A stretch of DNA of 14,373 nucleotides from a virus. Taxonomy: Duplodnaviria; Heunggongvirae; Uroviricota; Caudoviricetes. The stretch spans positions 1 through 14,373 of IMG/VR virus record IMGVR_UViG_2541047837_000005; one strand, written 5' to 3'. Below the pieces are notes generated by a model. The model was not told the DNA's origin, did no database searches, and worked only from the letters and a program-made list of their open reading frames with translations. Positions 1 to 14,373 of the stretch are shown piece after piece. Made by a program: the position numbers and the translations under genes. The first letter of the stretch is position 1, and every line of letters begins with the position of its first letter.

Positions 1-219
1 TTACATCCACATAATTTGCTGCCCTGACGGCAACGGGTGCGGCCTTACGGCGTGGACTTCTCCCGGCTTCACGATATATCGCTGTACCGACTCATAAGTG
101 ATGAATGTGGCGCTGCAATTCACGTTCTGACACTGGTGATAACGCTCTTTTGTCGTGTCAGTGATATAGCGACTTGTACGCGCATGTGCGGCATGCTGGC
201 ATAAAGGACAATGAAACAT
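1..219 (-). CDS. ogr: Ogr late-gene transcriptional activator, C4 zinc finger, 72 aa
   Basis: The 93-aa track ORF contains MFHCPLCQHAAHARTSRY...CQNVNC (Cys-x2-Cys-x22-Cys-x4-Cys) from the internal Met at 219; this matches the remembered P2 Ogr N-terminus and length. Stop is TAA at 1-3. Confidence 0.9.
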   Translation of the reverse strand: MFHCPLCQHAAHARTSRYITDTTKERYHQCQNVNCSATFITYESVQRYIVKPGEVHAVRPHPLPSGQQIMWM

Positions 220-300: not shown

Positions 301-1263
301 TCACTCATCATCTTCTGTTTCGTACTCCACATCAGAAAGCCTGACCTCAAGCTCCAGGGACGTCGTGAAGCCGCTATTATTCAGAAAATGTGTCACCTTA
401 GTGATTGTCCAGTCCTGCTCGTCTATGACGCGCTTAAAGCCTGACACTTTAACCGGTGTTTCCGTGTAAATATCTGCCCGACCGGTAGCCAGGCTGATGG
501 AGAACTCCGCCACACCCCGTTGCAGTTTATCCCACTTCGCCTGAGCGGCGCGCATGGCCTGCGCTTTCGTGGCATATACCGTAGTCAGGGCAAAAACGTT
601 GTCAGCCTCACCGGCCATGTATTCACCTTCGCGCGCTTCCGGTACTTTAGGCGCTTTCTTCTGCCTGACCGGTTTCGCTTTCGGGTGCTCCAGTGCGCGC
701 AGGTGTTTCTCTTTCTTTTTGCGTTTCAGTTTTACCTTCTGCTTTTGTGGCTTCGGGTCTTTGGTGTGTAACCACTTTGCCGTTACGCCGGTATAGGCTC
801 CACGGTCAGCAATCGCAAAATGATGGCGGTCGCCGTCGCTGCGGGTTATGGTGACCTGCGGGATTTTTTTACCACTGGCCGTCACCCCCTGCCCCGCTTT
901 GAGAAACAACAGTTTTCCCATTTTTACCGACACCTCACCGCCGTTGCGTTCTGCAAGACGGGTCAGGAATTTCGCATCAGACTCCTGCGACTGGTCGATG
1001 TGCGGGATTTTAATTCCGGCCAGTGACGGAGCGACACTAGCTTCCAGCCTGTTAACGGCGCGTTTTGTCGCTTCCGGCCACTTTTCATCCCACCTGTCGA
1101 CCGAAAACGCCCACGCCAGCCACGGCAGCAGATTTGCCGGACAGGTGTCCGGGTTCCACAGTTCACGAATACTGACCGGCGTTTTTTCAATTTCCGCACA
1201 GGCTTTTGCGGCGGCAACTTCAAGCGGTGATGAGCCGGTCGGCAGCAGTCGCGAATCACTCAT
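301..1263 (-). CDS. Chimeric tail ORF: about 70 aa resembling the baseplate protein gpI N-terminus fused in frame to the C-terminal region of tail protein gpD (deletion remnant), 320 aa
   Basis: N-terminus MSDSRLLPTGSSPLE...LWNPDTCPANLLPWLAWAFSVDRWDEKW resembles the gpI family; remainder (IPHIDQ...TITRSDGDRHHFAIADR...LELEVRLSDVEYETEDDE) resembles the gpD C-terminus; length 320 aa versus about 387 for P2 gpD; lies directly upstream of ogr as D does in P2. Confidence 0.6.
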   Translation of the reverse strand: MSDSRLLPTGSSPLEVAAAKACAEIEKTPVSIRELWNPDTCPANLLPWLAWAFSVDRWDEKWPEATKRAVNRLEASVAPSLAGIKIPHIDQSQESDAKFLTRLAERNGGEVSVKMGKLLFLKAGQGVTASGKKIPQVTITRSDGDRHHFAIADRGAYTGVTAKWLHTKDPKPQKQKVKLKRKKKEKHLRALEHPKAKPVRQKKAPKVPEAREGEYMAGEADNVFALTTVYATKAQAMRAAQAKWDKLQRGVAEFSISLATGRADIYTETPVKVSGFKRVIDEQDWTITKVTHFLNNSGFTTSLELEVRLSDVEYETEDDE

Positions 1264-1406
1264 CCGAGCCCCCGGTCACGACGCGGTATTCGGTGCAGAA
1301 AGACGCCTGCGTACTGTTGAGCACAATGTCGGCCAAGCACCTTGCCGACAACAATCAGCACTCCAATCATGAAAAGCGACAGGACGCTTTTTTCTTCTGC
1401 TGTCAT
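1260..1406 (-). pseudogene. 48-aa remnant ORF: holin gpY-like N-terminus (MTAEEKSVLSLFMIGVLIVVGKVL) joined to a short tail that ends in an ATGA overlap with the next ORF
   Basis: Translated by hand from the minus strand (below the ORF-track size cutoff). GGGAG ribosome-binding site upstream of the ATG at 1406; hydrophobic helix typical of a holin N-terminus; TGA stop overlaps the ATG at 1263. Confidence 0.35.
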
Positions 1407-1409
1407 GCG

Positions 1410-1613
1410 TTACTCCCACAGATTGACAGTTTCAGCCACGGGCGCGGTCTGAACGTCGGGCAGTTCGACGGCGGTGCCGTGTGGCAGCACCGCACCCAGT
1501 TCAGCCAGTCCCGGATTTGCGGCGAGCACGGCCTCGACCACGCCCTCAGTGCGCCCGTAATACCGGACACAAATGGCGTCGAGCGTGTCGCCCTGTAGCG
1601 CAAAGGTCTTCAT
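1410..1613 (-). CDS. X: Tail protein X (LysM-like), 67 aa
   Basis: MKTFALQGDTLDAICVRYYGRTEGVVEAVLAANPGLAELGAVLPHGTAVELP from the internal Met of the 90-aa track ORF; ATGA start/stop overlap with L at 1611-1615. Confidence 0.85.
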   Translation of the reverse strand: MKTFALQGDTLDAICVRYYGRTEGVVEAVLAANPGLAELGAVLPHGTAVELPDVQTAPVAETVNLWE

Positions 1614-2122
1614 CAGATTTGACTCACGATGCAGCGCGGCTTGTCCTGGATGCGCGCCACTGCCCAGCGCATATCCCGCCACAGCTCATCAATGGTGCTG
1701 TCAATGCTGTCGGCCTTCTTGTCGCCTTTCGCACTGGCATCCACGCCGCGATAACGCTCATAAAGCGACGCGGTCGCCATCGCACACACGGCGCGCTCGT
1801 AGTAAAAAACTTTGATGCTTTCACCGTCGATGTCGTCCGCCGGGACGTCCGCCAGACGCGTAAAACCGGCGGCAATTTTCTGTTCGCGGTACTCGTACAG
1901 CTCCGCATTCGTCTCCGCCATGCCTGACTTGATGGCCTCACGCAGACGGGCGGGGGCGACGGTCTGCTCAAGGCGCATACGTTCCCGGACGCGCTTCGGG
2001 TCGATATCGGGAAAAAAGAACGTGTTTTTAATCACCGGCTCGTCGCCTGCCGGTTGCGGGATGACCACCGTACCCTCACCGGACACGGGAGCCTCCTTTC
2101 GCGGAATAATCAGCGTCATCAT
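1613..2122 (-). CDS. L: Head completion / capsid stabilisation protein gpL, 169 aa
   Basis: Starts MMTLIIPRKEAPVSGEGTVVIPQPAGDEP at the internal Met of the 189-aa track ORF; length matches P2 gpL; positioned between M and X. Confidence 0.85.
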   Translation of the reverse strand: MMTLIIPRKEAPVSGEGTVVIPQPAGDEPVIKNTFFFPDIDPKRVRERMRLEQTVAPARLREAIKSGMAETNAELYEYREQKIAAGFTRLADVPADDIDGESIKVFYYERAVCAMATASLYERYRGVDASAKGDKKADSIDSTIDELWRDMRWAVARIQDKPRCIVSQI

Positions 2123-2221
2123 GACTACCTCTGAAAAGTCGGGCGGTGGACGCCGGTACAGTGTCAGGTGATTCACCCTCACTGACCGGCGTGCCGCCCT
2201 GGCGCGGGGCGCATTCGGTTG

Positions 2222-2659
2222 TTAACTGGCTTTCTTTTTCGGGCGTCCACGTTTTGCCGGTGTCGCACTCCGGGTCTTACGCGGGGCGCGGGTGGCCGCT
2301 TTGGGCTGCGGCTCCGGCTTCGGTTTCAGCTCCCGCTCCAGTCGTTCAATCTCTTTTTTGACGCCTGCCTGACAGTCGAGCTGTGTCGCACGTTGCAGGT
2401 GAGCCATCAGAATGTCATCCTGTGCACCTTTGCCCTGCTCCAGCACGCCGTTCACCCACGGCAACCAGAACGGCAGCAGTTCGCGTTTTTTCGCGGCCTT
2501 CAGCTCTTTTGAATAAATCGCTTTCAGTGTGCGCTGGTCTGCGGCGAGCTTAACCAGCATCTGCTCATAGACAGTTGCATGTCGCAGCGGGGCGGCTTCC
2601 CGCTGCGCGGTCATCGCTGCCGAGACCCGCATCATGTGGCGCTGTGCGGGACTCGTCAT
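2222..2659 (-). CDS. M: Terminase small subunit gpM-like, internally shortened (145 aa versus about 247 in P2)
   Basis: Ends recognisable (MTSPAQRHMMRVSAAMTAQREAAP at the N-terminus; basic KPKPEPQPKAATRAPRKTRSATPAKRGRPKKKAS tail); position between N and L; about 100 aa shorter than remembered P2 gpM. Confidence 0.7.
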   Translation of the reverse strand: MTSPAQRHMMRVSAAMTAQREAAPLRHATVYEQMLVKLAADQRTLKAIYSKELKAAKKRELLPFWLPWVNGVLEQGKGAQDDILMAHLQRATQLDCQAGVKKEIERLERELKPKPEPQPKAATRAPRKTRSATPAKRGRPKKKAS

Positions 2660-2662
2660 CGG

Positions 2663-3736
2663 TTACGCTCCCGGCTCTGCGGTCGCCTTAGCCGGTGTGG
2701 AGAAATCACCGACCTTAATTTTTTCCACCAGACAACCGGCGGCGTAGTCTTCCACCACGTAATCAATGTTCATTGACTCGTAGTTCTCCACGCGGTCGAG
2801 TTTCGGGTTTTCCTCAATCACGCGGCGATGGCTGTCATCCATGTAGTAGATGGACAGGTTTTCCAGCTTCGTGATGAGCATCGCATCCGCCGGGAAGTAC
2901 GGGACGCGTACCGCCGGCAGGTTACCGATGCGTTTCTGGCTGATGATGACGTCAGCGGCCAGCATTTCGCTGTTGTCCTGCTCCTTGTTGACGATGGGGA
3001 AATATTTGTCCGCCAGCAGCTGACGCCCCACAATCACCACAAGGTCAGGGTCTTCCTGATACCACGGCTCAATCAGGTTGTTGGTCGCATCCATCACCAG
3101 TGCATCGAGGCTGGCATAATCACCGCTCTTACCCACGCGGATGACCTCAGAGGTGGTGTGCCCTTCCTCGTCAGTGACCTTGCTCATCACGCGCGCCGGG
3201 GCTTCATTGCGGTATTTCTGCAGCCAGCCGACCGCCACATCCTGCAGCATCGGATTGCTGCTGCGGTCAGAGGTTTCGGCACGCCTCACGCCGTTAAAAC
3301 CGGCCATGATGAAATCAAGGGACTGGCGTTTGATAATGGCGTTACGGACACGGAGCTGGAAATCCTGATAACGCGCCCACAGGTCCAGCGTTTTGTAGCG
3401 GATATAAAAATCGAAGTTAATCTGGTCGCATTCGTACTTGTTTGACGCCAGCTTCGAGAAGTCCTTCGGCTGACGCTCGGTGCCACCGGCGGTGTCGGTG
3501 GTGCTGGCGATGGAGCCGGTGACACCGATGCCAATTTTTTCCCCTTTCATTTCGCTGACCGGCACAATGTTGATGCGGGTCAGAAAGTCAGAGGACTCCT
3601 GCATGGTGTTCATCAGGGTCTGGGTGACCGACGGTTCAACGGTGAATTTTTTCGACACATCACCGGCGTCGATGCCGTTCAGTTCGGCAACACGGGACAG
3701 GTAAGCATTAAATTTAAAGCGGGTTTCCTGGCGCAT
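2663..3736 (-). CDS. N: Major capsid protein precursor gpN, 357 aa
   Basis: Full-length match in size and sequence character to P2 gpN (MRQETRFKFNAYLSRVAELNGIDAGDVSKKF...); AGGA ribosome-binding site upstream; follows O. Confidence 0.92.
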   Translation of the reverse strand: MRQETRFKFNAYLSRVAELNGIDAGDVSKKFTVEPSVTQTLMNTMQESSDFLTRINIVPVSEMKGEKIGIGVTGSIASTTDTAGGTERQPKDFSKLASNKYECDQINFDFYIRYKTLDLWARYQDFQLRVRNAIIKRQSLDFIMAGFNGVRRAETSDRSSNPMLQDVAVGWLQKYRNEAPARVMSKVTDEEGHTTSEVIRVGKSGDYASLDALVMDATNNLIEPWYQEDPDLVVIVGRQLLADKYFPIVNKEQDNSEMLAADVIISQKRIGNLPAVRVPYFPADAMLITKLENLSIYYMDDSHRRVIEENPKLDRVENYESMNIDYVVEDYAAGCLVEKIKVGDFSTPAKATAEPGA

Positions 3737-3794
3737 AGTTTTTCCTGAAATTAAGGGTTAATCGTGAAGGTTTTCCCGGACTGACTGACGCCGG

Positions 3795-4649
3795 TCAGCA
3801 GTTCGTCATCAGGGCGTCACCGCCACCACCGGTGGCCTTGCTGCGGCGCTGCTGGGTCAGACTTTCGGTGTGGTCGAGACTGTTTTTCAGGCGGGTGAAT
3901 GCCTGGCTGGTTTCATCCGCCCTGTCAGTCACCTCCTGCTTAAGTGCGGAAAAGGCGGTTTCCATCTCAGAGAGGCGCTGCTCAGTGGCGCTCAGTTTTT
4001 CCTGCACATGTTCAGCAACAGCGGTCACCGCTTCATGCACGTCATTCAGACGGGCGTCATCGCTGGCCTGTTTGCGGCCAAAAATGGATTTCACCTTTTC
4101 GGTCAGGGCGGTGAACACGGTTTCAGGCAGGTCTTCAAATTCCAGCTCAACAGGCGTTGCCACTGAAATCAGGTTTTCAGGGCTTAATTTGAAGCGGTTC
4201 AGGGGGTTGTGTTTTGCCGTGCGGCAGAATTCCAGGTATTCCGTGCCGAGGCTTGCCGGGTCATCGGTGACGGCCAGCCCCACCAGATAACATTTGCCGG
4301 TATTGGCAAAGTTCGGCTGAATTTCCATTGAGGTGTAGACTTTCTGCGCGGCCTTGTTCATCGCGATAAGGTCATCGGTCGGGGTGATTTTCGCAAACAG
4401 CGCCCATTTGCCTTTCAGCGCCGAATCGTCGTCAATCTTTTCGGCCTTCAGTTCGACCACATCGCCATAACGTTTAAAAATACCGTCAGGCAGGATGCCG
4501 CGCAGATGTTCCAGGTTAATGCGGCAACCGTAGACACGCGGGTCAAAGGTTTCAGCCATTTCCTGAATATCCTGCGCACTGATGACACGCCCGTCACAGG
4601 TGTCACCCTCAACGCCGATACGAAAGAATTTTGAGACTTTTTTTGCCAT
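3795..4649 (-). CDS. O: Capsid scaffolding protein gpO, 284 aa
   Basis: MAKKVSKFFRIGVEGDTCDGRVISAQDIQEMAETFDP from the internal Met of the 306-aa track ORF; length equals P2 gpO; AGGA ribosome-binding site upstream. Confidence 0.88.
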   Translation of the reverse strand: MAKKVSKFFRIGVEGDTCDGRVISAQDIQEMAETFDPRVYGCRINLEHLRGILPDGIFKRYGDVVELKAEKIDDDSALKGKWALFAKITPTDDLIAMNKAAQKVYTSMEIQPNFANTGKCYLVGLAVTDDPASLGTEYLEFCRTAKHNPLNRFKLSPENLISVATPVELEFEDLPETVFTALTEKVKSIFGRKQASDDARLNDVHEAVTAVAEHVQEKLSATEQRLSEMETAFSALKQEVTDRADETSQAFTRLKNSLDHTESLTQQRRSKATGGGGDALMTNC

Positions 4650-4822
4650 TGTCAGGAGTCCTGAATAGTGATTAGAGGAGTCACATGTCGGCATCAGTTT
4701 CCCGACGATACGCATCCTCCGCCATCAGTCCCGGATGGCTTATCACTGACACAACAGCACCTTAGCGAATCGCGGGGCGCGACTCAGTAGCCTTGCCGTG
4801 TATTCATCACGGCGAGGTATTC
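4650..4822. promoter_or_regulatory. Divergent late-promoter region between O (minus) and P (plus); contains a 7-bp direct repeat AGGAGTC (4654-4660 and 4676-4682) and an inverted repeat CCGTG-N7-CACGG (4794-4812)
   Basis: Intergenic position between divergently oriented late operons, as in P2; repeats read by eye; no clear TGT-N12-ACA Ogr-type site found. Confidence 0.4.
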
Positions 4823-5560
4823 ATGACCATCACCACAGACACCACTCTTTTACACGACCCGCGTCGTCAGGCGGCGCTGCTGTACTGGCAGGGGTTTTCC
4901 GTGCCGCAGATTGCCGCCATGTTGCAGATGAAACGCCCGACGGTGCAGAGCTGGAAACAGCGCGACGGCTGGGACAGCGTTGCCCCCATCAGCCGTGTCG
5001 AAATGAGTCTGGAAGCGCGGCTGACCCAGCTCATCATCAAACCGCAGAAAACCGGCGGTGACTTCAAGGAAATTGACCTGCTGGGACGCCAGATTGAACG
5101 GCTGGCGCGGGTCAACCGCTACAGTCAGACCGGCAACGAGGCAGACCTTAATCCGAACGTCGCTAACCGCAACAAAGGCGGGCGTCGCAAACCGAAAAAG
5201 AATTTTTTCAGTGACGAGGCCATCGAAAAGCTGGAGCAGATTTTCTTTGAGCAGTCTTTCGACTATCAGTTGCACTGGTACACGCCGGAAATGAAAACCG
5301 CAATGGTGCTCAAGGCAAAAGACGTCATCCGCCGTGGCTGTCTGGAATACGACGTCAGCGCCACCGACATCACCAGCTCGTTTATGGCTATCCGCAAGAC
5401 CATGACCAGCAGCGGACGCAGTGCCACCTATGAGGCCAGCCGCAGCGAGGAAGCCAGCCACGCCGACCTCGCCTGGGCGACCATGCACGCCCTGTTAAAT
5501 GAGCCACTCACCGCCGGTATCAGCACCCCGCTGACATCCACCATTCTGGAGTTTTACTGA
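4823..5560 (+). CDS. P: Terminase large (ATPase) subunit gpP-like, internally shortened (245 aa versus about 590 in P2); no Walker A motif seen
   Basis: MTITTDTTLLHDPRRQAALLYWQGFSVPQIAAMLQMKRPTVQSWKQRDGWDS N-terminus after GAGG ribosome-binding site at the internal ATG 4823; stop TGA overlaps the Q ATG at 5560; no GxxxxGK[ST] in the translation. Confidence 0.7.
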   Translation: MTITTDTTLLHDPRRQAALLYWQGFSVPQIAAMLQMKRPTVQSWKQRDGWDSVAPISRVEMSLEARLTQLIIKPQKTGGDFKEIDLLGRQIERLARVNRYSQTGNEADLNPNVANRNKGGRRKPKKNFFSDEAIEKLEQIFFEQSFDYQLHWYTPEMKTAMVLKAKDVIRRGCLEYDVSATDITSSFMAIRKTMTSSGRSATYEASRSEEASHADLAWATMHALLNEPLTAGISTPLTSTILEFY

Positions 5561-6594
5561 TGAGCAAGAAAAAAGGGAAAACACCGCAACCTGCGGCAAA
5601 AAAAATGACCGCCAGCGCCCCGAAAATGGAGGCATTCACCTTTGGTGAGCCGGTGCCGGTACTCGACCGCCGTGACATTCTGGATTACGTCGAGTGCATC
5701 AGTAACGGCAGATGGTATGAGCCACCGGTCAGCTTTACCGGTCTGGCAAAAAGCCTGCGTGCTGCCGTGCATCACAGCTCACCGATTTACGTCAAACGTA
5801 ATATTCTGGCCTCGACATTTATCCCGCATCCGTGGCTTTCCCAGCAGGATTTCAGCCGCTTTGTGCTGGATTTTCTGGTGTTCGGTAATGCGTTTCTGGA
5901 AAAGCGTTACAGCACCACCGGTAAGGTCATCAGACTGGAAACCTCACCGGCAAAATATACCCGCCGAGGCGTGGAAGAGGATGTTTACTGGTGGGTGCCG
6001 TCCTTCCATGAGCCGACACCTTTCGCGCCCGGCTCCGTGTTTCACCTGCTGGAGCCGGATATTAATCAGGAGCTGTACGGCCTGCCGGAATATCTCAGCG
6101 CCCTTAACTCTGCCTGGCTGAATGAGTCGGCCACGCTGTTCCGCCGCAAGTATTACGAAAACGGCGCACATGCCGGATACATCATGTACGTCACCGATGC
6201 CGTGCAGGATCGCAACGATATCGAAATGCTCCGCGAAAACATGGTGAAGTCGAAAGGCCGCAACAACTTTAAAAATCTGTTTCTCTATGCCCCGCAAGGG
6301 AAAGCCGACGGCATTAAAATTATCCCGCTCAGTGAAGTGGCGACGAAGGACGATTTTTTTAATATCAAAAAAGCCAGCGCCGCTGACCTGCTGGACGCAC
6401 ACCGCATCCCCTTTCAGTTGATGGGCGGCAAGCCGGAGAACGTCGGGTCACTGGGAGATATTGAGAAAGTGGCAAAGGTCTTTGTCCGCAATGAGCTTAT
6501 CCCGTTACAGGACAGGATCCGCGAGATAAACGGCTGGCTCGGTCAGGAGGTCATCCGCTTTAAAAACTACTCACTGGACACTGACAACGGCTGA
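5560..6594 (+). CDS. Q: Portal protein gpQ, 344 aa
   Basis: Length and sequence character of P2 gpQ; translationally coupled to P; followed by a terminator and cos. Confidence 0.92.
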   Translation: MSKKKGKTPQPAAKKMTASAPKMEAFTFGEPVPVLDRRDILDYVECISNGRWYEPPVSFTGLAKSLRAAVHHSSPIYVKRNILASTFIPHPWLSQQDFSRFVLDFLVFGNAFLEKRYSTTGKVIRLETSPAKYTRRGVEEDVYWWVPSFHEPTPFAPGSVFHLLEPDINQELYGLPEYLSALNSAWLNESATLFRRKYYENGAHAGYIMYVTDAVQDRNDIEMLRENMVKSKGRNNFKNLFLYAPQGKADGIKIIPLSEVATKDDFFNIKKASAADLLDAHRIPFQLMGGKPENVGSLGDIEKVAKVFVRNELIPLQDRIREINGWLGQEVIRFKNYSLDTDNG

Positions 6595-6599
6595 ACATC

Positions 6600-6621
6600 G
6601 CCGCCTGCGGGCGGCTTTTTT
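6600..6621 (+). terminator. Rho-independent terminator after Q: GCCGCC-TGCG-GGCGGC stem-loop followed by TTTTTT
   Basis: Perfect 6-bp GC stem with 4-nt loop and a 6-T run immediately 3' of the Q stop codon. Confidence 0.6.
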
Positions 6622-6763
6622 ACAACCCGCCATCACGCCCTCACACGCTCACCACCGCACAAAACAGCCCGCATACACACCAACGCCCCGGCGAACAATC
6701 TAAACGCCATCACGACGCGCTCAGACGCTGAAAAAATAAAATCAGCACCACCGCCAGCGCGCA

Positions 6764-6782
6764 GTGCTTTCCCCGCCTCGCC
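6764..6782 (-). other. cos cohesive-end site (19-nt P2 cohesive end GGCGAGGCGGGGAAAGCAC, present as its reverse complement)
   Basis: Exact 19-mer GTGCTTTCCCCGCCTCGCC on the plus strand, about 170 bp beyond Q, where cos lies in P2. Confidence 0.75.
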
Positions 6783-6905
6783 CGCCCGCTTCATGGGTCG
6801 GTTTTAATGCAGGTGCATGACCACCATGGTGTCGCGCCTATTCTGACGGAGCACGATCTAAACTAGCAGCTCCAACGCATGCAAAACAATGCGCCTAATG
6901 CTTGC

Positions 6906-6918
6906 ACATCTGAAAATA
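6906..6918 (+). repeat. Left copy of imperfect 13-bp direct repeat ACATCTGAAAATA flanking the AT-rich cargo
   Basis: 12 of 13 match to 8879-8891 (ACACCTGAAAATA); located at the left edge of the AT-rich block. Confidence 0.3.
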
Positions 6919-7049
6919 AAAATCGTGTAGAAAGATATAGCAAAGTCTGCATATTAAAGCTGGCTGGCACGCAACTCATATCGCAGTGATTTGCCAATTA
7001 CATTGCGCAAAATTTACACTAACAACGGTTATCAAGAAGCAGGCGCAAA

Positions 7050-7060
7050 TTGATTATCAA
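7050..7060. promoter_or_regulatory. Palindrome TTGAT-T-ATCAA in the leader of the MBL-fold gene (candidate operator)
   Basis: Perfect 5-1-5 inverted repeat about 145 bp upstream of the ATG at 7205. Confidence 0.2.
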
Positions 7061-7126
7061 AAACTCGATCTAATCTATTGATCTAGACACGAATATTTAT
7101 GCATCCTGATATTGTTTTAAAGGTCT

Positions 7127-7142
7127 TTGATTGCCTAATCAA
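7127..7142. promoter_or_regulatory. Palindrome TTGATT-gcct-AATCAA in the leader of the MBL-fold gene (candidate operator overlapping a putative promoter)
   Basis: Perfect 6-bp arms with a 4-bp spacer about 65 bp upstream of the ATG; shares the TTGAT half-site with 7050-7060. Confidence 0.2.
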
Positions 7143-7204
7143 GTCCTGCACTACTTTGGCGTACAACACTTACATAAAGTTGAAAACTACAGAAGGGCAC
7201 AAGA

Positions 7205-8290
7205 ATGGGTTACGAAGTTGATTTCTTAGCAGTTGGAGAAAAAAAAAGTGGAGATGCTATCTGCATAAGATGGGGCAACCTCCACGGAACAAGAGCAGAG
7301 CAAAAAGTTGTCGTAATTGATGCGGGGTACGCAAGCACTGGTCCACAAATAATTGAACATTTACAGAAATACTATCATACAAATACTATTGACTTACTCA
7401 TATCCACGCATCCAGATAGCGACCATGCTGGCGGCCTTGAGCATGTGATTGAGAATGCGGAAGTCAAAGAGTTCTGGATTCACCAACCTTGGGAGCATAA
7501 TGAAAATCTCGCGCAGGAATTTGCTGATGGAAGGATAACAGATGCAAGTATTGCCAGACGTATACAAGATAATCTACAAAAAGCCTATGATGCCGTCAAA
7601 TCAGCGAAAAAAAAAGGAATAGAAATTAAGGAGCCTTTTCAAGGCAGGACTTGGGACAATTCTAAACTGGTTGTTATTGGACCAACACAAGCATACTATG
7701 AAACATTAATCCCCGATTTTGCAAGAATGCCTGAAAAAGCAGAAACAACTGCAACCAGTGGTACAGATGCATATAACTACTTTTTTGAGAAAGCCAAAGA
7801 ACAAGTCGAGTATATTGCTGATTGGTTCTCTGATGAGGGAATTGATGACAAGGACACAACTACTGCACAAAACAATTCAAGCGTTATATTAAAAATTGAA
7901 ATTGACAATAAAACACTAGTATTTACAGGTGATGCAGGAATAACTGCATTAGATATGGCTGCTGATCATATAAATAATAACTCATTATCATTTATTCAAG
8001 TGCCCCACCATGGAAGCAGGAGAAACATCGGTCCAGCGGTGCTAAATAAGCTCGTTGGAAATATTGTAAGCGAAGGAGGAAGAAGTGGTGTTTGTGCATT
8101 TATATCATGCGCACCGGATTCCGATAAACACCCTCATCAAGCGGTCATTAATGCTTTTACAAGGCGTGGAGCCAAAGTAGTCGCCACAGAAGGCACCAAT
8201 AAACGCCATTCTAGTAATGCCCCCGCCAGAGATGGCTGGACTGCAGTCACCCCACGCTCATACGCAAGGAGTTATAAGACTGAAGAATAA
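7205..8290 (+). CDS. Metallo-beta-lactamase-fold hydrolase, ComEC/Rec2-like nuclease-type domain, 361 aa; cargo gene
   Basis: Motifs AVGEKKSGDAICI...VVVIDAGY, STHPDSDHAGG (His69/Asp71/Asp73/His74), LVFTGDAG, VPHHGS, and C-terminal HPH...VATEGTN, typical of ComEC-type MBL domains; about 35% GC in sampled lines; GAAGGG ribosome-binding site; position of old in P2. Confidence 0.75.
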   Translation: MGYEVDFLAVGEKKSGDAICIRWGNLHGTRAEQKVVVIDAGYASTGPQIIEHLQKYYHTNTIDLLISTHPDSDHAGGLEHVIENAEVKEFWIHQPWEHNENLAQEFADGRITDASIARRIQDNLQKAYDAVKSAKKKGIEIKEPFQGRTWDNSKLVVIGPTQAYYETLIPDFARMPEKAETTATSGTDAYNYFFEKAKEQVEYIADWFSDEGIDDKDTTTAQNNSSVILKIEIDNKTLVFTGDAGITALDMAADHINNNSLSFIQVPHHGSRRNIGPAVLNKLVGNIVSEGGRSGVCAFISCAPDSDKHPHQAVINAFTRRGAKVVATEGTNKRHSSNAPARDGWTAVTPRSYARSYKTEE

Positions 8291-8295
8291 TTCGT

Positions 8296-8317
8296 TAAGC
8301 TGCCTTAGGGCAGCTTA
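8296..8317. terminator. Hairpin TAAGCTGCC-TTAG-GGCAGCTTA between the convergent cargo genes (candidate bidirectional terminator)
   Basis: Perfect 9-bp stem with 4-nt loop starting 6 nt after the MBL gene stop, AT-rich on both sides; the stop codon of the minus-strand gene lies in the loop. Confidence 0.5.
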
Positions 8318-8793
8318 TTATTAGCCTTACTCACTCTTAATGTAATAAACTTAATTTGCTTAACGTACGACACAATAAAAACAAAAATCAAAAACAATGA
8401 AATCCATTTCGACGCCATGTAATCACCACCAACTACAAACGAAACAAAAAACAAAGAAAACAAAAAAACCAAGGACATAGAGAATAACGTCCTATACATA
8501 TTTGCAGTTTCTTGAAGAAGCTCTATTTTATTATCCTTTCTACATGCTGAGATATATTCCTCATATGGAACAAATTTTACCAGCCCCAAAAATTTCAACA
8601 CAGGCTCAAAAACAATAGACCCAATCCTTCCGATAATTATCCCCGTAAAATAGTAAAGTACCACATTCTTAACAACATCATCTGTGGATAATATCACATT
8701 GGTTGCCCGCTCAAACAAATAAATAAATAAAGCACCGGGAAAGAGATTGTTAAATATATTATAAGACGATATTTTTTCCCATAAACCATCCAT
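8305..8793 (-). CDS. Small multi-pass membrane protein of unknown function, 162 aa; cargo gene
   Basis: Three to four hydrophobic stretches (GALFIYLF; VVLYYFTGIIIGRIGSIVFEPVL; LFSMSLVFLFSLFFVSFVVGG; WISLFLIFVFIVSYV); ATG at 8793 with AAAGGTG ribosome-binding site (the track ORF starts at an upstream GTG); AT-rich. Confidence 0.65.
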   Translation of the reverse strand: MDGLWEKISSYNIFNNLFPGALFIYLFERATNVILSTDDVVKNVVLYYFTGIIIGRIGSIVFEPVLKFLGLVKFVPYEEYISACRKDNKIELLQETANMYRTLFSMSLVFLFSLFFVSFVVGGDYMASKWISLFLIFVFIVSYVKQIKFITLRVSKANNKLP

Positions 8794-8878
8794 ACAACAC
8801 ACCTTTTAACCAATTTTAAAGACGCCATTTTCATCAAAAGAAACAAAAATAGCAAGAACATCAGAACAAACTCTTTGA

Positions 8879-8891
8879 ACACCTGAAAATA
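8879..8891 (+). repeat. Right copy of imperfect 13-bp direct repeat ACACCTGAAAATA flanking the AT-rich cargo
   Basis: 12 of 13 match to 6906-6918; about 90 bp upstream of the membrane-protein start. Confidence 0.3.
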
Positions 8892-8908
8892 TTATGTTCC
8901 GACACCAT

Positions 8909-9061
8909 TCATTTTGTAAAAGCAGAATATCCCAAACACACATCGATTGTAGGATATATAAACGTCTTCCTGCCATATGTTATGGTAGCCCCTCGCGCCA
9001 GCGCCTCAAGCTCCCATCGCTGCGGCCTGATACCGTTCTGAGCAAGGTCAACGCGGATACT
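8909..9061 (-). pseudogene. Possible out-of-frame C-terminal remnant of replication gene A (...IRVDLAQNGIRPQRWELEALARGATITYG...)
   Basis: ORF in a different frame continues directly past the A stop (9048) to 8909 with GC content like the P2 core; assignment to the A C-terminus is from imperfect memory. Confidence 0.3.
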
Positions 9062-10766
9062 CGTTAACGTCATCCGACGGGCTACGGGCGACTCTGACAG
9101 TCTGACAATCGCGCGGAACATTTGCCCCACCCTGCGCGCTGATATACAACGCAAAATCACCACTGTCTGCGGCGGCGCGTGCAGCCTCGACGCGCTCGTC
9201 AAACTCATCAGCAATGCTGACGCCGCGAGGCAATTTGCGTAGTTCACGGTAAGCCCCCATTGTCGGCAGGCCAACCGTTTTAAATTGCGGAATGCGCCAC
9301 GTTGACGCCCATGCGGTAACAGCCGCGGCAGTATCTTTCAGCGGTCTGCCGGTATCGTTATCGAGCTGCCCATCCAGTGCATAGCCGTCGATATTTTTTG
9401 AGATGTATTTCGCGATATACCCCGCAGCACCGCCCCGGTTAAGATGTTTTGCCTGAAAACGGTTTCGCGCGGCTCCTCTTTCGTCGCCATCCTCTTTGAG
9501 CGCATAGCGACGCATGATTTCGATAATCTGGTTACGCTGGCGTGGATTACAAAAAAGCATCATATGCCAGTGCGGCGTTCCGTCGTGGTGTGGCTCGACG
9601 ACACGCAAACCGTAGGCCTGTAAATCATTATCCTTGAATGCCGTGCGCATCAGGCTCCAGATACGGCAGAGATAACGCTGCGCATCCTTTGGATTAAATG
9701 CCTCATCGTTCCAGCCGTGATTAAGCTGAACGGTTTTACTTTCGCCTTTTCCGACCTGACGTGTCGGGTGATACTTTGACGGCGCGGTCAGCGTGATAAA
9801 CATCCCCACATCACCCTCTGCAGCGGCGTAACGCTCAATACCGGCAATGGTGTTCATCAGCTCCATCCGGCGAATTTCAGGATTAGAAATACTGCCCATC
9901 ACCTTACTGATAAGGTCGATGCGCTCGCCGGTTTCCTTATTTTCAAGGTCACACGATTTAAGAAATTCCAGATTTGCCTGGCGGCGTGCACGCACATCAC
10001 GAATGGCATGTTTACTGGCATAAGGAGAACGGTCTTTATTGACCTCCCCGACAGCAATCAGTAACGCCTCATGCCAGCGCATACGCTGGCCTTTAAGCTG
10101 ATGAGTCCACCACTCATCGTTAAACAGACGGGCAATGGCAGAATATGCCTGCCTCGTGGTCATCTGCCCTTTACGGTATTTTTTCCAGTAGAGAGGGGAA
10201 ATATTGAAAGCTCGTGCAGCGCCAGCAACATGACCATACAGGTGAGCCTGCGCCTCATCCGTAAACAGCGATTCTTTCTCGCCATGCGCATCCACCCAGG
10301 CATCGCAGAGTTCCTCATACATCATGAAAAGCTGTGATGAGATACGGGCGGCAAACTTTTTCAGCTCCTTGTCATTCATTCCAGGCAAACGCGCATAATG
10401 GTCACGCTCTGCCAGAAACAGCAACGACGCGTCGGTGTTCATTTCATGGCGCTGATTCACACGCTCAATGCGCGGCCATAAACGACGCTGAAAAGTGGAT
10501 GTGAGGAAATAAAACCCGTGCACCGGGCTTTTATTGCGCCGGATGTAGTCATAGCGTGAAGTAAACAGCGAGCGCAAAAAGTAAGGCAGGCGATTAATCG
10601 TGGATAAAACACCTTGCACCTGACGCATCTCGTCACGTGTAAGGGGTCTTTCGCGCCCGACGGCCTCGCGTGGCGCGTTCCATGCATAAGCACCGGTAAA
10701 CGTCTCACCGGTGCCTGCGGCAAATGCTGACGGAGGGACAAAACGCCCGGAGGCTTTAACGGCCAT
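9048..10766 (-). CDS. A: Rolling-circle replication initiator gpA, C-terminally truncated (572 aa from the ATG versus about 761 in P2)
   Basis: MAVKASGRFVPPSAFAAGTG start at the internal ATG 10766 (the track ORF begins at an upstream TTG); HWHMM metal-binding motif and GYIAKYISK active-site tyrosine pair present; ends abruptly ...SDDVNEYPR. Confidence 0.85.
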   Translation of the reverse strand: MAVKASGRFVPPSAFAAGTGETFTGAYAWNAPREAVGRERPLTRDEMRQVQGVLSTINRLPYFLRSLFTSRYDYIRRNKSPVHGFYFLTSTFQRRLWPRIERVNQRHEMNTDASLLFLAERDHYARLPGMNDKELKKFAARISSQLFMMYEELCDAWVDAHGEKESLFTDEAQAHLYGHVAGAARAFNISPLYWKKYRKGQMTTRQAYSAIARLFNDEWWTHQLKGQRMRWHEALLIAVGEVNKDRSPYASKHAIRDVRARRQANLEFLKSCDLENKETGERIDLISKVMGSISNPEIRRMELMNTIAGIERYAAAEGDVGMFITLTAPSKYHPTRQVGKGESKTVQLNHGWNDEAFNPKDAQRYLCRIWSLMRTAFKDNDLQAYGLRVVEPHHDGTPHWHMMLFCNPRQRNQIIEIMRRYALKEDGDERGAARNRFQAKHLNRGGAAGYIAKYISKNIDGYALDGQLDNDTGRPLKDTAAAVTAWASTWRIPQFKTVGLPTMGAYRELRKLPRGVSIADEFDERVEAARAAADSGDFALYISAQGGANVPRDCQTVRVARSPSDDVNEYPR

Positions 10767-11031
10767 ATGAGCCAAAAGCCTCTGAACAACGCTTGCTGAG
10801 TTGCTCAACCTGCGCGTTTAAATCAGCAAAAGACTTTGCGCTTCCGGTCAGAATATCGTGATGCATCAGGCCGGAAACGAGCTGGCTTAATTTCGGGTAA
10901 TAACCAACCACCGCCAGCCATTCCTGACCGGCGTTTTTACCGCTTTCCGCTCTCTTTTTCTCGTGGAGAATAAACTGAAAGCTGTCACTGGTAACGACAT
11001 AACGTTCGCCAATTTCAATACGAATACTCAT
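10756..11031 (-). CDS. Hypothetical early-operon protein, 91 aa (P2 orf83-like by position)
   Basis: ATG with GGAG ribosome-binding site 8 nt upstream; overlaps the A start by 11 nt; between the zinc-finger ORF and A. Confidence 0.55.
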   Translation of the reverse strand: MSIRIEIGERYVVTSDSFQFILHEKKRAESGKNAGQEWLAVVGYYPKLSQLVSGLMHHDILTGSAKSFADLNAQVEQLSKRCSEAFGSYGR

Positions 11032-11252
11032 GCTGTTCTCCAGTAATGTTTGTTTTTTGCTTCAAAGACTGACTGACAGGAAACACAACGCGTGGCTGAC
11101 GGATAAGCCGCACGACGGGCAGCAGGTATTGGCGCATCACACTCTTCGCAAACCAGCGCAGAAGCACCACAATGTTTTACCCTTGCCGCGTTAATCTGGC
11201 GCTCCAGTAATTCAGCCTGTTGTTCCTGAATAAAATCCACGTTGTCCGGCAT
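11028..11252 (-). CDS. TraR/DksA-type C4 zinc-finger protein, 74 aa (P2 orf82-like)
   Basis: CGASALVCEECDAPIPAARRAAYPSATRCVSCQ gives a CxxC...CxxC arrangement; coupled to flanking ORFs by start/stop overlaps. Confidence 0.65.
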   Translation of the reverse strand: MPDNVDFIQEQQAELLERQINAARVKHCGASALVCEECDAPIPAARRAAYPSATRCVSCQSVFEAKNKHYWRTA

Positions 11253-11554
11253 TACCAGCTCCTTTTGTCGTTCAGTTTCTTAAATTCATCAGCGCAATAG
11301 CTGGTGATTTCTGTCGTTAATTTTGTCAGTTCATCCACGGAGGAAATTTGCTTGTGAAATACAGCGCGTTTAACAAGTAAATTGACCACATCAGACAGGA
11401 GGTTTAATTCACTCTGATAAATCGCGATAACAGATTCAGTTATTTCGCGTTTTTCTTTATCAAGCCTAAGTTGAATAAGAGACAAATCGCCATTTTTCAT
11501 AACGACGATTTTTAAGGCATTGTTCAGTAAAACAACTGAACGAGAACAGGACAT
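11252..11554 (-). CDS. Hypothetical early-operon protein, 100 aa from the ATG (P2 orf81-like by position)
   Basis: Track ORF starts at TTG 11557; ATG at 11554 overlaps the upstream stop by 1 nt; co-oriented within the B-to-A operon. Confidence 0.5.
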   Translation of the reverse strand: MSCSRSVVLLNNALKIVVMKNGDLSLIQLRLDKEKREITESVIAIYQSELNLLSDVVNLLVKRAVFHKQISSVDELTKLTTEITSYCADEFKKLNDKRSW

Positions 11555-11778
11555 CAAAGCACCTCCCCGCGAGACAATCCGATGTTGTGAAATTTTTCCG
11601 ACTCCTGACTGAGCAGCTCGACTATCTCCACGCGGGATAACTCCGCCTTTGTGATGTGGCGAATCATGGCGTCAAGATGAGAAGAAAAGCGCGTCGCAGC
11701 GTCGGCCTGTGCTTCGGTTCTGGCCTGTTGCAGCAGTAATGCGTATTTACCGCACTGATTTTCAGAAACTGTATGCAT
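11554..11778 (-). CDS. Hypothetical early-operon protein, 74 aa from the internal ATG (P2 orf80-like by position)
   Basis: Internal ATG at 11778 has a GGAG ribosome-binding site 7 nt upstream; the track ORF extends to 11811. Confidence 0.5.
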
Positions 11779-11841
11779 GACTTTCTCCAGGCAAAAAGAA
11801 GCCCCGCACAATTAAGTGCGTTAAAAACTCTGGTTAATTAC

Positions 11842-12342
11842 TTAATGCAGATATTGCTCTGGTTTTACCGACGTCAGAATTGTCGGTGCATACTCAAACA
11901 GACTGAATAATTCACGTAATGCACGGAATAAAGCATCACGCCAGTAACATGATTCTTCATTAATTCGCCAGTATGGCTGGTTAAATTCTTTTTCTGTCAG
12001 TCGTGCGTGCATAAATAAAGTGCGACGCTGACTGACTGTTAAAAAACTAATATATGCATACTCACTTGCGCCAACCTGACGGCGTTTTGAGAATGCCCCA
12101 CGCAATTCATCAATTGCACATACCAGTCGTTCACGTTCGACGTCGTTCATTTCTTCAAAACGCATCGTTGCGTGACGCTGTTTTAACTGAGCATGGAAGC
12201 AAACCGTTAACCGTTCGCGCTCCATCATCTGATTATAATAATCACATGTATCCTGCCAGCGAGGAACGGCAAGATGCTTACCAATTATCCGGCGCATAGC
12301 TGCTGGCTGTTTTTCAACGAGATTGAGCGTCATCACTGTCAT
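11842..12342 (-). CDS. B: Replication protein gpB (helicase-loading accessory), 166 aa
   Basis: Length identical to P2 gpB (166 aa); position between the orf78-like gene and the small early ORFs; ATG at 12342 overlaps the upstream stop. Confidence 0.75.
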   Translation of the reverse strand: MTVMTLNLVEKQPAAMRRIIGKHLAVPRWQDTCDYYNQMMERERLTVCFHAQLKQRHATMRFEEMNDVERERLVCAIDELRGAFSKRRQVGASEYAYISFLTVSQRRTLFMHARLTEKEFNQPYWRINEESCYWRDALFRALRELFSLFEYAPTILTSVKPEQYLH

Positions 12343-12575
12343 TTCCAGACCCTCCGGCTTTTCAGAAAGGTCAGAGCCTTTTTTACCGGACTCTGTTTTT
12401 TGGTGCGGATAATGATTCCCTTACGCCCCTTACCGTGGGTGATGGTGAAGTCAATCGCCCTGGGGCTTTCGTTACGCAATAACTGAGCAATACAACGAGG
12501 CTCGTTCATCCTTTCCACCTTAAGCCGCACGGCCATGTCTTGATTTGCTGTAACTAATGCGATTTTTCCAGTCAT
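12339..12575 (-). CDS. Hypothetical protein, 78 aa from the internal ATG (P2 orf78-like by position and length)
   Basis: Track ORF of 86 aa starts at TTG; from the ATG at 12575 the product is exactly 78 aa; lies between cox and B. Confidence 0.45.
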   Translation of the reverse strand: MTGKIALVTANQDMAVRLKVERMNEPRCIAQLLRNESPRAIDFTITHGKGRKGIIIRTKKQSPVKKALTFLKSRRVWK

Positions 12576-12891
12576 GCCATTCTGTCGGAGCTTCATCAAC
12601 TAGCTGGGCTGCGTACTTGTCCCACTCACGGCGATTAATCCATAATTCAGCTTTCCCTCTTGGTTTTAATGGGTCTGTCATGTAGAAGGCTGGCAGCTTT
12701 CCTGCTTTAGCCATTTCAGCCACCGCGCGTGGTGTCTTACCGATGTAAAGAGCAAAACCTTCTTTCGACAGCAAATCAGATGGGCGCTCTGAAATCTGAA
12801 TGCTTTTACGTTTGGCTTCATTTTCGAAACTTGCCTCATCGCTAGTTGGACAAGAAATTTCTACATTTGTCGTCACTTTGCTATCCTCCAT
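12520..12891 (-). CDS. cox: Cox/Apl-like helix-turn-helix excisionase and lytic-switch repressor; ORF is 123 aa, longer than the 91 aa of P2 Cox
   Basis: First gene of the early operon, divergent from C; helix-turn-helix-like segment FALYIGKTPRAVAEMAKAGKLPAFYMTDP resembling the Cox GKLP..MTDP region; ATG at 12891. Confidence 0.6.
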   Translation of the reverse strand: MEDSKVTTNVEISCPTSDEASFENEAKRKSIQISERPSDLLSKEGFALYIGKTPRAVAEMAKAGKLPAFYMTDPLKPRGKAELWINRREWDKYAAQLVDEAPTEWHDWKNRISYSKSRHGRAA

Positions 12892-12984
12892 AAGATTTGC
12901 GATTCACCAACTGGAGCCATCTAGAGCCTTTTTGAGCGAATCACAAATTGCCAAGTAACAATATAATTGGAGATTAGCAAAATT
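12892..12984. promoter_or_regulatory. Immunity switch region between cox and C with repeated GCGA(T/A)TCAC motifs (12899-12907, 12936-12944) and TATAAT at 12962-12967
   Basis: Divergent intergenic region at the expected Pe/Pc position; two copies of a 9-bp motif 37 bp apart; promoter elements read by eye only. Confidence 0.4.
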
Positions 12985-13284
12985 ATGTCAAGTGAACAAA
13001 GTGAGAAACTAAAGCTCATCCGTGAATCCGAACGCCTTAAAACTAAGGAACTTGCTGAATTAATTGGAATTAATTACTACACATATCATGGATATGAATC
13101 AGGAAAATCAAAAATGCCTATGGAAGCAGGTATGAAGCTGTTTAAGCATCCACGCTTTCGCAAGTATCGTGACTGGTTCATGTTTGATGAAACAGATCCA
13201 GCAGCTGGACAAATAGCCCCGGCTCTCGCACACATTGGGCAAGACTCAACAACCTTGCACCACTCAGACCAGAAGACTGGCTGA
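12985..13284 (+). CDS. C: Immunity repressor C, 99 aa
   Basis: From ATG 12985 (the track ORF starts at TTG 12967): helix-turn-helix LKTKELAELIGINYYTYHGYESGKS and C-terminus GQIAPALAHIGQDSTTLHHSDQKTG resembling P2 C; 99 aa as in P2; upstream of int. Confidence 0.8.
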   Translation: MSSEQSEKLKLIRESERLKTKELAELIGINYYTYHGYESGKSKMPMEAGMKLFKHPRFRKYRDWFMFDETDPAAGQIAPALAHIGQDSTTLHHSDQKTG

Positions 13285-13377
13285 CGATTTATTCAGCATA
13301 TGTGTGTAGTAAATGTACGAAAGAAAATTGCATTAATTTTCAAGTAGTAGAAGTAAACAGCGTCATCGGAGGGCTTT

Positions 13378-14373
13378 ATGTCTATTAAAAAGCTCGATGA
13401 TGGTCGTTATGAAGTGGACGTCAGACCGCAGGGTGCAGATGGAAAACGTATCAGGCGGAAATTTAAAACTAAAGGTGAAGCTCAAGCATTCGAACGTCAT
13501 GTACTGGTTAACTACCACAACAAAGAGTGGTTGGAGAAACCAGCCGACCGCCGAACTCTTACAGAGTTGTTAGGCAGATGGTGGATATATCACGGAAAAT
13601 CACATGAGCGTGGAGATATTGAACGGGGGCGTTTAACGACAATAATCGCCAAATTTGCAGAAATGGGAGTGTCCAGAGCTGACCAGCTAACAAAGAAAAC
13701 GATAACTGATTATCGCGTTGTAATGATGAACGATGGTCTGAAACCAGCCAGCGTAAATCGACATCTGGCAATAATGAGCGGGATGTTCACCAAGTTAATT
13801 GACGCCGGTGAATACCACTCTCACAACCCGTTCCGTGAGATTAAACGGTTACGTGAAGCTGTTACGGAAATGGCTTTTTTGTCCAGTGAAGAGATTACGC
13901 GGCTGTTATCCATGCTTGATGGTGATGAATTAAATGCAACTCTGGTCTGCCTTTCTACTGGTGGACGCTGGAGTGAAGTGTCTAATTTAAAAGCTGAACA
14001 CATCATTAACCAGATGGTTACGTTTATGAAAACTAAAAACGGAAAACGCAGGACAATTCCCGTTTCGCAGGACCTGATTAAACGGATCAAGACCAAAAAT
14101 TCAGGCAGGCTTTTTAATGCCAGTTACTACAAAGTGCGTAACGCTCTCAGGGAAGTAAAACCCGATTTACCTGACGGACAAGCAGTACATGTTTTGAGGC
14201 ATACATTTGCCACACATTTTATAATGAATGGAGGTAACATAATCACATTGCAGCGCATCCTGGGTCATTCTAACATTCAGCAAACTATGACCTACGCACA
14301 CTTTGCACCGGATTTCTTACAAGATGCTGTGACTCTTAACCCGGTGTCAGGAATGTCCATAATGCGTCCATAA
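13378..14373 (+). CDS. int: Tyrosine integrase (P2 Int family), 331 aa
   Basis: N-terminus MSIKKLDDGRYEVDVRP; catalytic signature TGGRWSE, HVLRHTFATHF, GHSNIQQTMTYAHF; GGAGGG ribosome-binding site; TAA stop is the last codon of the window. Confidence 0.92.
   Translation: MSIKKLDDGRYEVDVRPQGADGKRIRRKFKTKGEAQAFERHVLVNYHNKEWLEKPADRRTLTELLGRWWIYHGKSHERGDIERGRLTTIIAKFAEMGVSRADQLTKKTITDYRVVMMNDGLKPASVNRHLAIMSGMFTKLIDAGEYHSHNPFREIKRLREAVTEMAFLSSEEITRLLSMLDGDELNATLVCLSTGGRWSEVSNLKAEHIINQMVTFMKTKNGKRRTIPVSQDLIKRIKTKNSGRLFNASYYKVRNALREVKPDLPDGQAVHVLRHTFATHFIMNGGNIITLQRILGHSNIQQTMTYAHFAPDFLQDAVTLNPVSGMSIMRP

Follow-up and report, generated by a model that had tools for sequence, protein, structure and literature searches.

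The cos site at 6764-6782 of the DNA analysed here is most probably a passive relic, genuine and intact in sequence, left in a pro483-type Peduovirus prophage that became defective very recently. The DNA in question (the window, 14,373 nt) makes up the body of a P2-like prophage of pro483 type, which a single E. coli strain (GCA_000459235.1) carries in its pflA gene. In our account cos would simply lie in a stretch that was missed by all five of the deletions suffered by this prophage, within an element that would no longer replicate, package itself, lyse the cell or build tails. Because the deletions remove about 52% of the prophage, a site as small as this would be expected to survive about half the time by chance. 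Its retention is not remarkable, being what is expected from where the deletions fell, and the feature is the familiar cos of the P2 family in a defective prophage that is ordinary and very young.

The cos site and its flanks

The 19-nt cohesive-end sequence GGCGAGGCGGGGAAAGCAC has a single match in the window, on the minus strand and free of mismatches, against a chance expectation of 0.01. The 19-mer is identical to both ends of P2 (NC_001895) and to the left end of P4 (NC_001609), and the claim of an exact P2 cohesive end made in a first-pass annotation of the sequence is thereby confirmed. P2 and P4 have only a ~55-bp cos core in common (PMC9594776), and this core too is found in the window:

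6764..6782, minus strand: 19-nt cohesive end, cos cleavage region of the P2/P4 family, exact (single exact match)
6757..6812, minus strand: 56-bp cos core common to P2 and P4 (by alignment; 54 of 56 positions as in P2)

The two differences from the P2 core both lie to the left of the 19-mer, the window having CCGACCCATG where P2 has CCGCCCCGTG. Both variants are also present in the intact EFF60 prophage that serves below as the reference, and pro483 carries a closely similar variant, CCGACCCATA, at the same place. The exact 56-mer core was found in 24 IMG/VR contigs, mostly of ~30 kb, and when the comparison is widened to a 171-bp cos region, phages 12W and D8 match at ~98%.

Longer cos flanks raise P2 cosmid transduction more than 1000-fold (PMC9594776). 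Those in the window are unaltered, as they differ from EFF60 at just one base over the 160 bp to each side of the 19-mer. Altered flanks, which the first-pass annotation had itself named as a finding that would speak against its interpretation, were therefore looked for, and what was found instead was a match to intact EFF60, 12W and D8. The surroundings are equally regular: Q ends at 6594, the core occupies 6757-6812, the cargo follows at 7205-8793, directly beside cos as had been noticed at the outset, and A' (the truncated A gene) starts at 9048. The window site thus has the 19-nt end, the ~55-bp core and the place between Q and a variable locus that characterise cos in the P2 family. Judged from its sequence, it could still be recognised and cut by the P2-family terminase of another phage. 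No second cos-like site that would permit cos-to-cos packaging in situ was found in the window with up to three mismatches allowed.

A 53-aa ORF runs across cos on the minus strand (6633-6794), and the pro483 record has a short hypothetical CDS in part of the intergenic stretch that this ORF spans. The ORF is most likely not a gene.

A pro483-type prophage in pflA

The window is 100% identical to scaffold KE700922.1 of GCA_000459235.1, on which the prophage sits between pflB and pflA, and it contains no N runs. Nearly all of it can be aligned to P2 and related phages, with the P2 orientation reversed and with identities to P2, pro483 and EFF60 of 97-99.98%. The gene order reads ogr, a remnant of D, an I/J fragment, Y', X, L, M', N, O, P', Q and cos, followed past cos by a 2.1-kb non-P2 insert, A', orf83 to orf78, B, cox, C and int, which ends at 14373.

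A 13-bp att core, ACCAATAACTGAC, flanks the prophage as a direct repeat and overlaps codons 2-5 of pflA. The same sequence forms both ends of the pro483 phage record, and the same pflA core is found in EFF60 and in the KFu022 prophage discussed below. The genes int, cox and C, which had looked intact at first sight, are intact by comparison, each product being identical throughout to its counterpart in the intact EFF60 prophage:

12520..14373: lysogeny/excision module of pro483 type (cox minus, C plus, int plus), all identical to EFF60
12520-12891, minus strand: cox, 123/123 against EFF60
12985-13284, plus strand: C, 99/99 against EFF60
13378-14373, plus strand: int, 331/331 against EFF60

With both att cores present, the cis and trans parts required for excision are all intact by sequence, and the predicted excised circle measures 14,589 bp.

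The pflA junction sequences lie just outside both window ends (locus L007, 6291-6394 and 20767-20892), and there is one private SNP in the ogr-side att arm. The prophage supplies a new 5' end to pflA, and PflA is called as a protein of 265 aa with a phage-derived N-terminus.

Five recent deletions

As the reference for mapping deletions we used the intact EFF60 prophage (NZ_CP086678), which is ~30.2 kb long, occupies the same pflA site and carries the same cos-adjacent insert; the window was compared also with P2 and pro483. Relative to EFF60, five deletions, together accounting for 15.6 of the 30.2 kb, take out the tail and lysis genes:

junction 1053-1054: deletion 1, 9,396 bp from I to D, giving an in-frame I(1-70)-D(last 250) fusion
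junction 1334-1335: deletion 2, 4,460 bp from J to Y
junction 2405-2406: deletion 3, 306 bp within M, in frame
junction 5279-5280: deletion 4, 1,035 bp within P, in frame
junction 9058-9060: deletion 5, 422 bp within A, frameshifting

The overlap at the junctions is only 2-3 bp at all five deletions, which are of microhomology type. The terminase genes are crippled, as had been claimed: P' is without residues 153-497 of 590 (345 codons), a loss that, going by the Pfam domains of the intact protein, takes the ATPase domain (164-386) entirely and over half of the nuclease domain (413-571), and M' is without residues 86-187 of 247 (102 codons). A' consists of 570 native residues of the original 759, plus PR. 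The segment lost from A corresponds to P2 29743-30161 and contains the annotated origin nick site at 29892; a 40-mer around this nick is absent from the window and present exactly in EFF60. All the other genes are open, and nearly or fully identical to those of EFF60. Only three mismatches separate the two over the whole of 6675-14373 (99.96% identity), from which we infer that the deletions are recent. The remainder of the gene map is as follows:

1..219, minus strand: ogr, late-gene activator, intact (72/72 identical to P2)
301-1263, minus strand: I(1-70)-D(last 250) in-frame fusion, 320 aa, deletion remnant
1260-1406, minus strand: Y', truncated holin, deletion remnant
1410-1613, minus strand: X, intact (compared with EFF60)
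1613-2122, minus strand: L, head completion, intact (compared with EFF60)
2222..2659, minus strand: M', small terminase, internally deleted, 145 aa
2663-3736, minus strand: N, major capsid, intact (compared with EFF60)
3795-4649, minus strand: O, scaffold, intact (compared with EFF60)
4650..4822: divergent late promoters P_P/P_O and Ogr activator site (172/173 identical to P2)
4823..5560, plus strand: P', large terminase, internally deleted, 245 aa
5560..6594, plus strand: Q, portal, intact, 344 aa (342/344 against EFF60; Pfam Phage_portal)
6600..6615, plus strand: tQ-like intrinsic terminator after Q (terminator scan; corresponds to the P2 tQ annotation)
9048..10766, minus strand: A', truncated replication initiator, without the P2-type origin nick site
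10756..12509, minus strand: early genes orf83, orf82, orf81, orf80, B and orf78, intact (compared with EFF60)

Peduovirus synteny, att repeats at the site used by its relatives and the loss of essential lytic genes together identify the element as a defective P2-like prophage. A promoter and terminator scan of the window gave nothing beyond the tQ terminator, and an Rfam scan gave no RNA family. The in-frame deletions are those in I-D (301-1263), M (2222-2659) and P (4823-5560), and M' and P' lie downstream of Ogr-dependent late promoters.

Other degraded prophages also keep cos. One, in KFu022 (NZ_CP091677, locus L035), is P2-like, occupies the same pflA site and was degraded independently, and another, on IMG/VR contig L031, is a differently deleted prophage of P2 type that retains both cos and Q. 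Of the 1,663 complete E. coli genomes that have a P match, ~48 have no more than a partial P, which adjoins the portal gene in the examples listed. As to the KFu022 prophage itself, it has lost its tail genes and kept terminase, capsid and lysis genes, A and cos; its cargo is a different one (an AAA ATPase), and its C and Cox are different also.

The deleted form has been seen in a single strain. When the proteins M', I-D fusion, A' and P' were looked up by exact sequence, the only matches were GCA_000459235.1 and the Logan assembly of SRR958405, and DNA scans of metagenome and species-genome collections for the P and A deletion junctions (two of the five) gave 0 matches. None of the 24 IMG/VR contigs with the same cos core has the deletions, and the best matches listed from 5,426 complete E. 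coli genomes are all of intact length (~19.5 kb for window positions 1053-14373). The deleted form is thus a singleton at a pflA site used by intact relatives, with no footprint of spread.

The cargo beside cos

The insert between cos and A carries an intact pair of genes that matches PDC-M48, an unvalidated candidate defence system in PADLOC:

7205..8290, plus strand: cargo gene 1, MBL-fold hydrolase, 361 aa (PADLOC candidate PDC-M48B, E 6e-99)
8305..8793, minus strand: cargo gene 2, small hydrophobic protein, 162 aa (PADLOC candidate PDC-M48A, E 6e-49)

The product of the second gene is probably a membrane protein. According to the supplement of Rousset et al. (2022), the same protein pair (with the MBL-fold hydrolase as WP_021533447) is among the occupants of the P2 cos-adjacent hotspot, and what defines that hotspot, variable genes with defence-associated domains between cos and A, is found in the window. 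A literature search for PDC-M48 yielded no paper naming it and no anti-phage activity of the pair.

At an identity of at least 99.8% the 2.1-kb cargo is present in 22 of 5,426 complete E. coli genomes. In every case the copy lies next to gene A of a P2-like prophage; these prophages occupy several chromosomal positions and have at least two int modules between them. A variant of the cargo with 73% identity occurs in 23 more complete E. coli genomes.

Proposed packaging by a helper phage

The first-pass annotation had gone further, suggesting that a helper phage could excise and package the element and so make of it a satellite-like vehicle for the cargo. As a description this stands, in that cos and its flanks, the crippled terminase, int, C and cox, att and cargo are all as supposed, whilst the function of helper packaging does not: excision and packaging of the element by a helper are unsupported, there being no origin, the wrong size, no helper-control genes and no more than a singleton. 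That a P2-like helper, co-resident or superinfecting, sets the element's Int and Cox to excising it, and that the helper terminase then packages the DNA via cos so that the cargo moves, we consider improbable.

An exact cos with native flanks, identical to that of P2 and P4, is a helper-compatible packaging signal, and in this respect the element resembles a P4-like satellite; it has none of the replication module or origin, the helper-manipulating genes, the capsid-matched size and the recurrence across genomes that such satellites show. P2 terminase uses circular DNA as its substrate, which is what the excised element would be (PMC5557969), and P2 transduces small plasmids bearing cos at frequencies of 1e-5 to 3e-2 (PMC9594776). 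PMC11389934 moreover cites the packaging of defective E. coli O157 prophages with the help of other prophages.

What the helper would have to package is of the wrong length, however. The 14,589-bp monomer amounts to 126% of P4, 43% of P2 and 50% of pro483 (genomes of 11,624, 33,593 and 29,237 bp, respectively; the Peduovirus records listed span 28.9-34.8 kb). It is too big for a P4-size head and about half a P2 headful, and so fits neither capsid. Only a dimer, expected to be rare, would fit, its 29,178 bp being close to the size of the pro483 genome. In cos packagers a cos has to lie close to terminase once the head has filled, and packaging of P4 genomes into P2 heads is inefficient even for three of them together (PMC6893505).

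With the P2-type origin deleted and A truncated at residue 570 of 759, the excised circle would not amplify. The A protein of P2 acts preferentially in cis. The window has no gene of the sid, psu, epsilon or alpha kind; every ORF in it is either a P2 homologue or cargo.

The element has int, C, cox and both att sites intact, but classical P2 cannot supply excision, because P2 Int is identical at only 174 of 331 positions, the att core is different and the two Cox proteins have only 30 residues in common. Cox is needed for excision, and whilst some heterologous Cox proteins complement P2 cox mutants, others do not (PMC3936717). KFu022 combines the int type of the window with a different C and Cox, indicating that heteroimmune phages of the pflA integrase type probably exist. 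Phages of the resident immunity type should, from what is known of P2 biology, be held in check by the intact C. Since repressors of P2 type do not respond to SOS induction, derepression would have to be spontaneous. Repression of the homoimmune helper is a difficulty that has been noted for prophage-derived proto-hitchers, a role already proposed in general terms for defective prophages (PMC11389934).

The distribution of the element also argues against helper-driven transfer, since it is a singleton at the ancestral pflA site with no trace of spread, and the cargo already travels in full-length phages. Transduction en bloc would, we infer, be extremely rare. It would need either spontaneous derepression or a compatible Cox, and then the conversion of an unreplicated 14.6-kb circle into a 29.2-kb dimer filling a T=7 head.

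A possible recombination route for the cargo

If this copy of the cargo moves, homologous recombination into an incoming heteroimmune P2-like phage appears likelier than transduction en bloc: the phage would take up the cargo, which sits in the cos-adjacent hotspot flanked by conserved Q/cos and A sequence, and would afterwards package itself, as a recombinant, with its own terminase. A mosaic boundary is visible near 6674/6675 (within 6594-6764), ~90 bp from cos on the Q side, the mismatches to EFF60 numbering 27 in 5303-6674 as against the three in 6675-14373. This abrupt change in identity, together with the distribution of the cargo, would fit an exchange of the cos-adjacent locus among P2-like genomes. 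Such exchange by homologous recombination has been discussed (Rousset et al. 2022), and recombination between phages and defective prophages has been shown experimentally for lambdoid phages (PMC3945230). A crossover that rescued the cargo without the A deletion would have to fall in the ~250 bp that separate the cargo from the junction of deletion 5, and confinement of viable recombinants to this short stretch implies a lower frequency.

Interference and assembly

The truncated genes could in principle have a function of their own in defence against P2, the Ogr protein of an infecting phage switching on the late promoters, P' and M' poisoning its terminase and the chromosomal cos serving as a decoy; we think this very unlikely. 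The deletions in M and P are in frame and leave ORFs of 145 aa (M') and 245 aa (P'), of which P' retains the Terminase_5 HTH domain at its N-terminus and the final stretch of the nuclease domain. Taken with a late promoter and Ogr site identical to those of P2 at 172 of 173 positions, these in-frame stubs imply that P' and M' would be made during helper infection. However, three deletions out of five being in frame has a chance probability of ~0.2 and is not unusual, other degraded P2 prophages have different, out-of-pattern deletions, and nothing about the element, a singleton, points to selection or recurrence. We attach just as little probability to a nascent hitcher, in which Ogr-induced P' and M' would dampen helper packaging and rare 29.2-kb dimers, packaged via cos, would carry PDC-M48 to new hosts, the helper being a heteroimmune P2-like phage with the pflA integrase type.

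That the deletions, seen as they are in one strain only, might be mis-joins in the assembly of a prophage that is in truth intact and self-packaging is scarcely credible, given that the same junctions occur in the NCBI scaffold and in the independently built Logan assembly of SRR958405, that each falls in unique sequence, overlapping by just 2-3 bp and free of repeats that could mislead an assembler, and that the window, with no N runs, matches the scaffold at 100%.

Relation to known systems

The P2/P4 cos site itself is said to go back to work by Ziermann and Calendar in 1990. The site in the window shares with it the 19-nt end, 54 of 56 core positions and the same place between Q and the locus next to A, and differs from the cos of P2 in its two substitutions and in sitting in a prophage without working terminase, origin, tail or lysis genes. 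The pflA prophages EFF60 and pro483 (NC_028943) agree with the window in att site, in int, C and cox and in their early genes; EFF60 also has its cargo and cos, whereas the window is without the 15.6 kb removed by the five deletions.

P4-like elements resemble the window in having a cos core, an integrase and defence cargo directly beside cos, the cargo of the window being a candidate only. P4, however, has its own replicon (alpha, ori, crr) as well as epsilon for helper derepression, delta as late activator and sid and psu for control of capsid size, to which the window can oppose only ogr, and its 11.6-kb genome fits the small head, whilst the window element measures 14.6 kb. Phage-inducible chromosomal islands (PICIs) bring their own replication module, repressors that sense the helper and genes that redirect packaging, and they recur in many genomes; in none of these respects does the window element resemble them. 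It is like the cos-type PICIs SaPIbov5 and EcCICFT073 in being chromosomal, in lacking terminase and in carrying the cos of a helper, as set out in PMC5052747 and PMC9006064.

A freshly decayed P2-like prophage that keeps a perfect cos beside a candidate defence cassette matters little as it stands. Were helper-dependent transfer true of it, the element would represent a natural first step from prophage to satellite, a transition that is discussed but rarely observed. Of more practical use is the point that such remnants are reservoirs from which incoming P2-like phages can gain cos-adjacent cargo by recombination. In 1959 Cohen reportedly described P2 Hy dis as having arisen from a defective P2-related prophage of E. 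coli B. The window element is like that prophage in that a defective P2-like resident, highly similar to incoming phages of its kind, can pass on its immunity or cargo region by homologous recombination; unlike the source of P2 Hy dis, it is not one from which a recombinant has been observed, and its A deletion narrows the stretch available for crossover. P2 Hy dis is also mentioned in PMC3936717.

A last observation concerns the deletion endpoints. The J-side endpoint of deletion 2 (...GATGTCGGCCA, P2 coordinate 12121) coincides with a deletion endpoint in L031 (4466-4467), which is an unrelated degraded prophage of P2 type at a different att site; the other side of the L031 deletion is different. 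Pattern scans for the shared endpoint returned only chance matches unrelated to P2. A rough estimate puts the probability of such a coincidence between the window and L031 at ~0.007, and the J endpoint at P2 coordinate 12121 is possibly a deletion hotspot.
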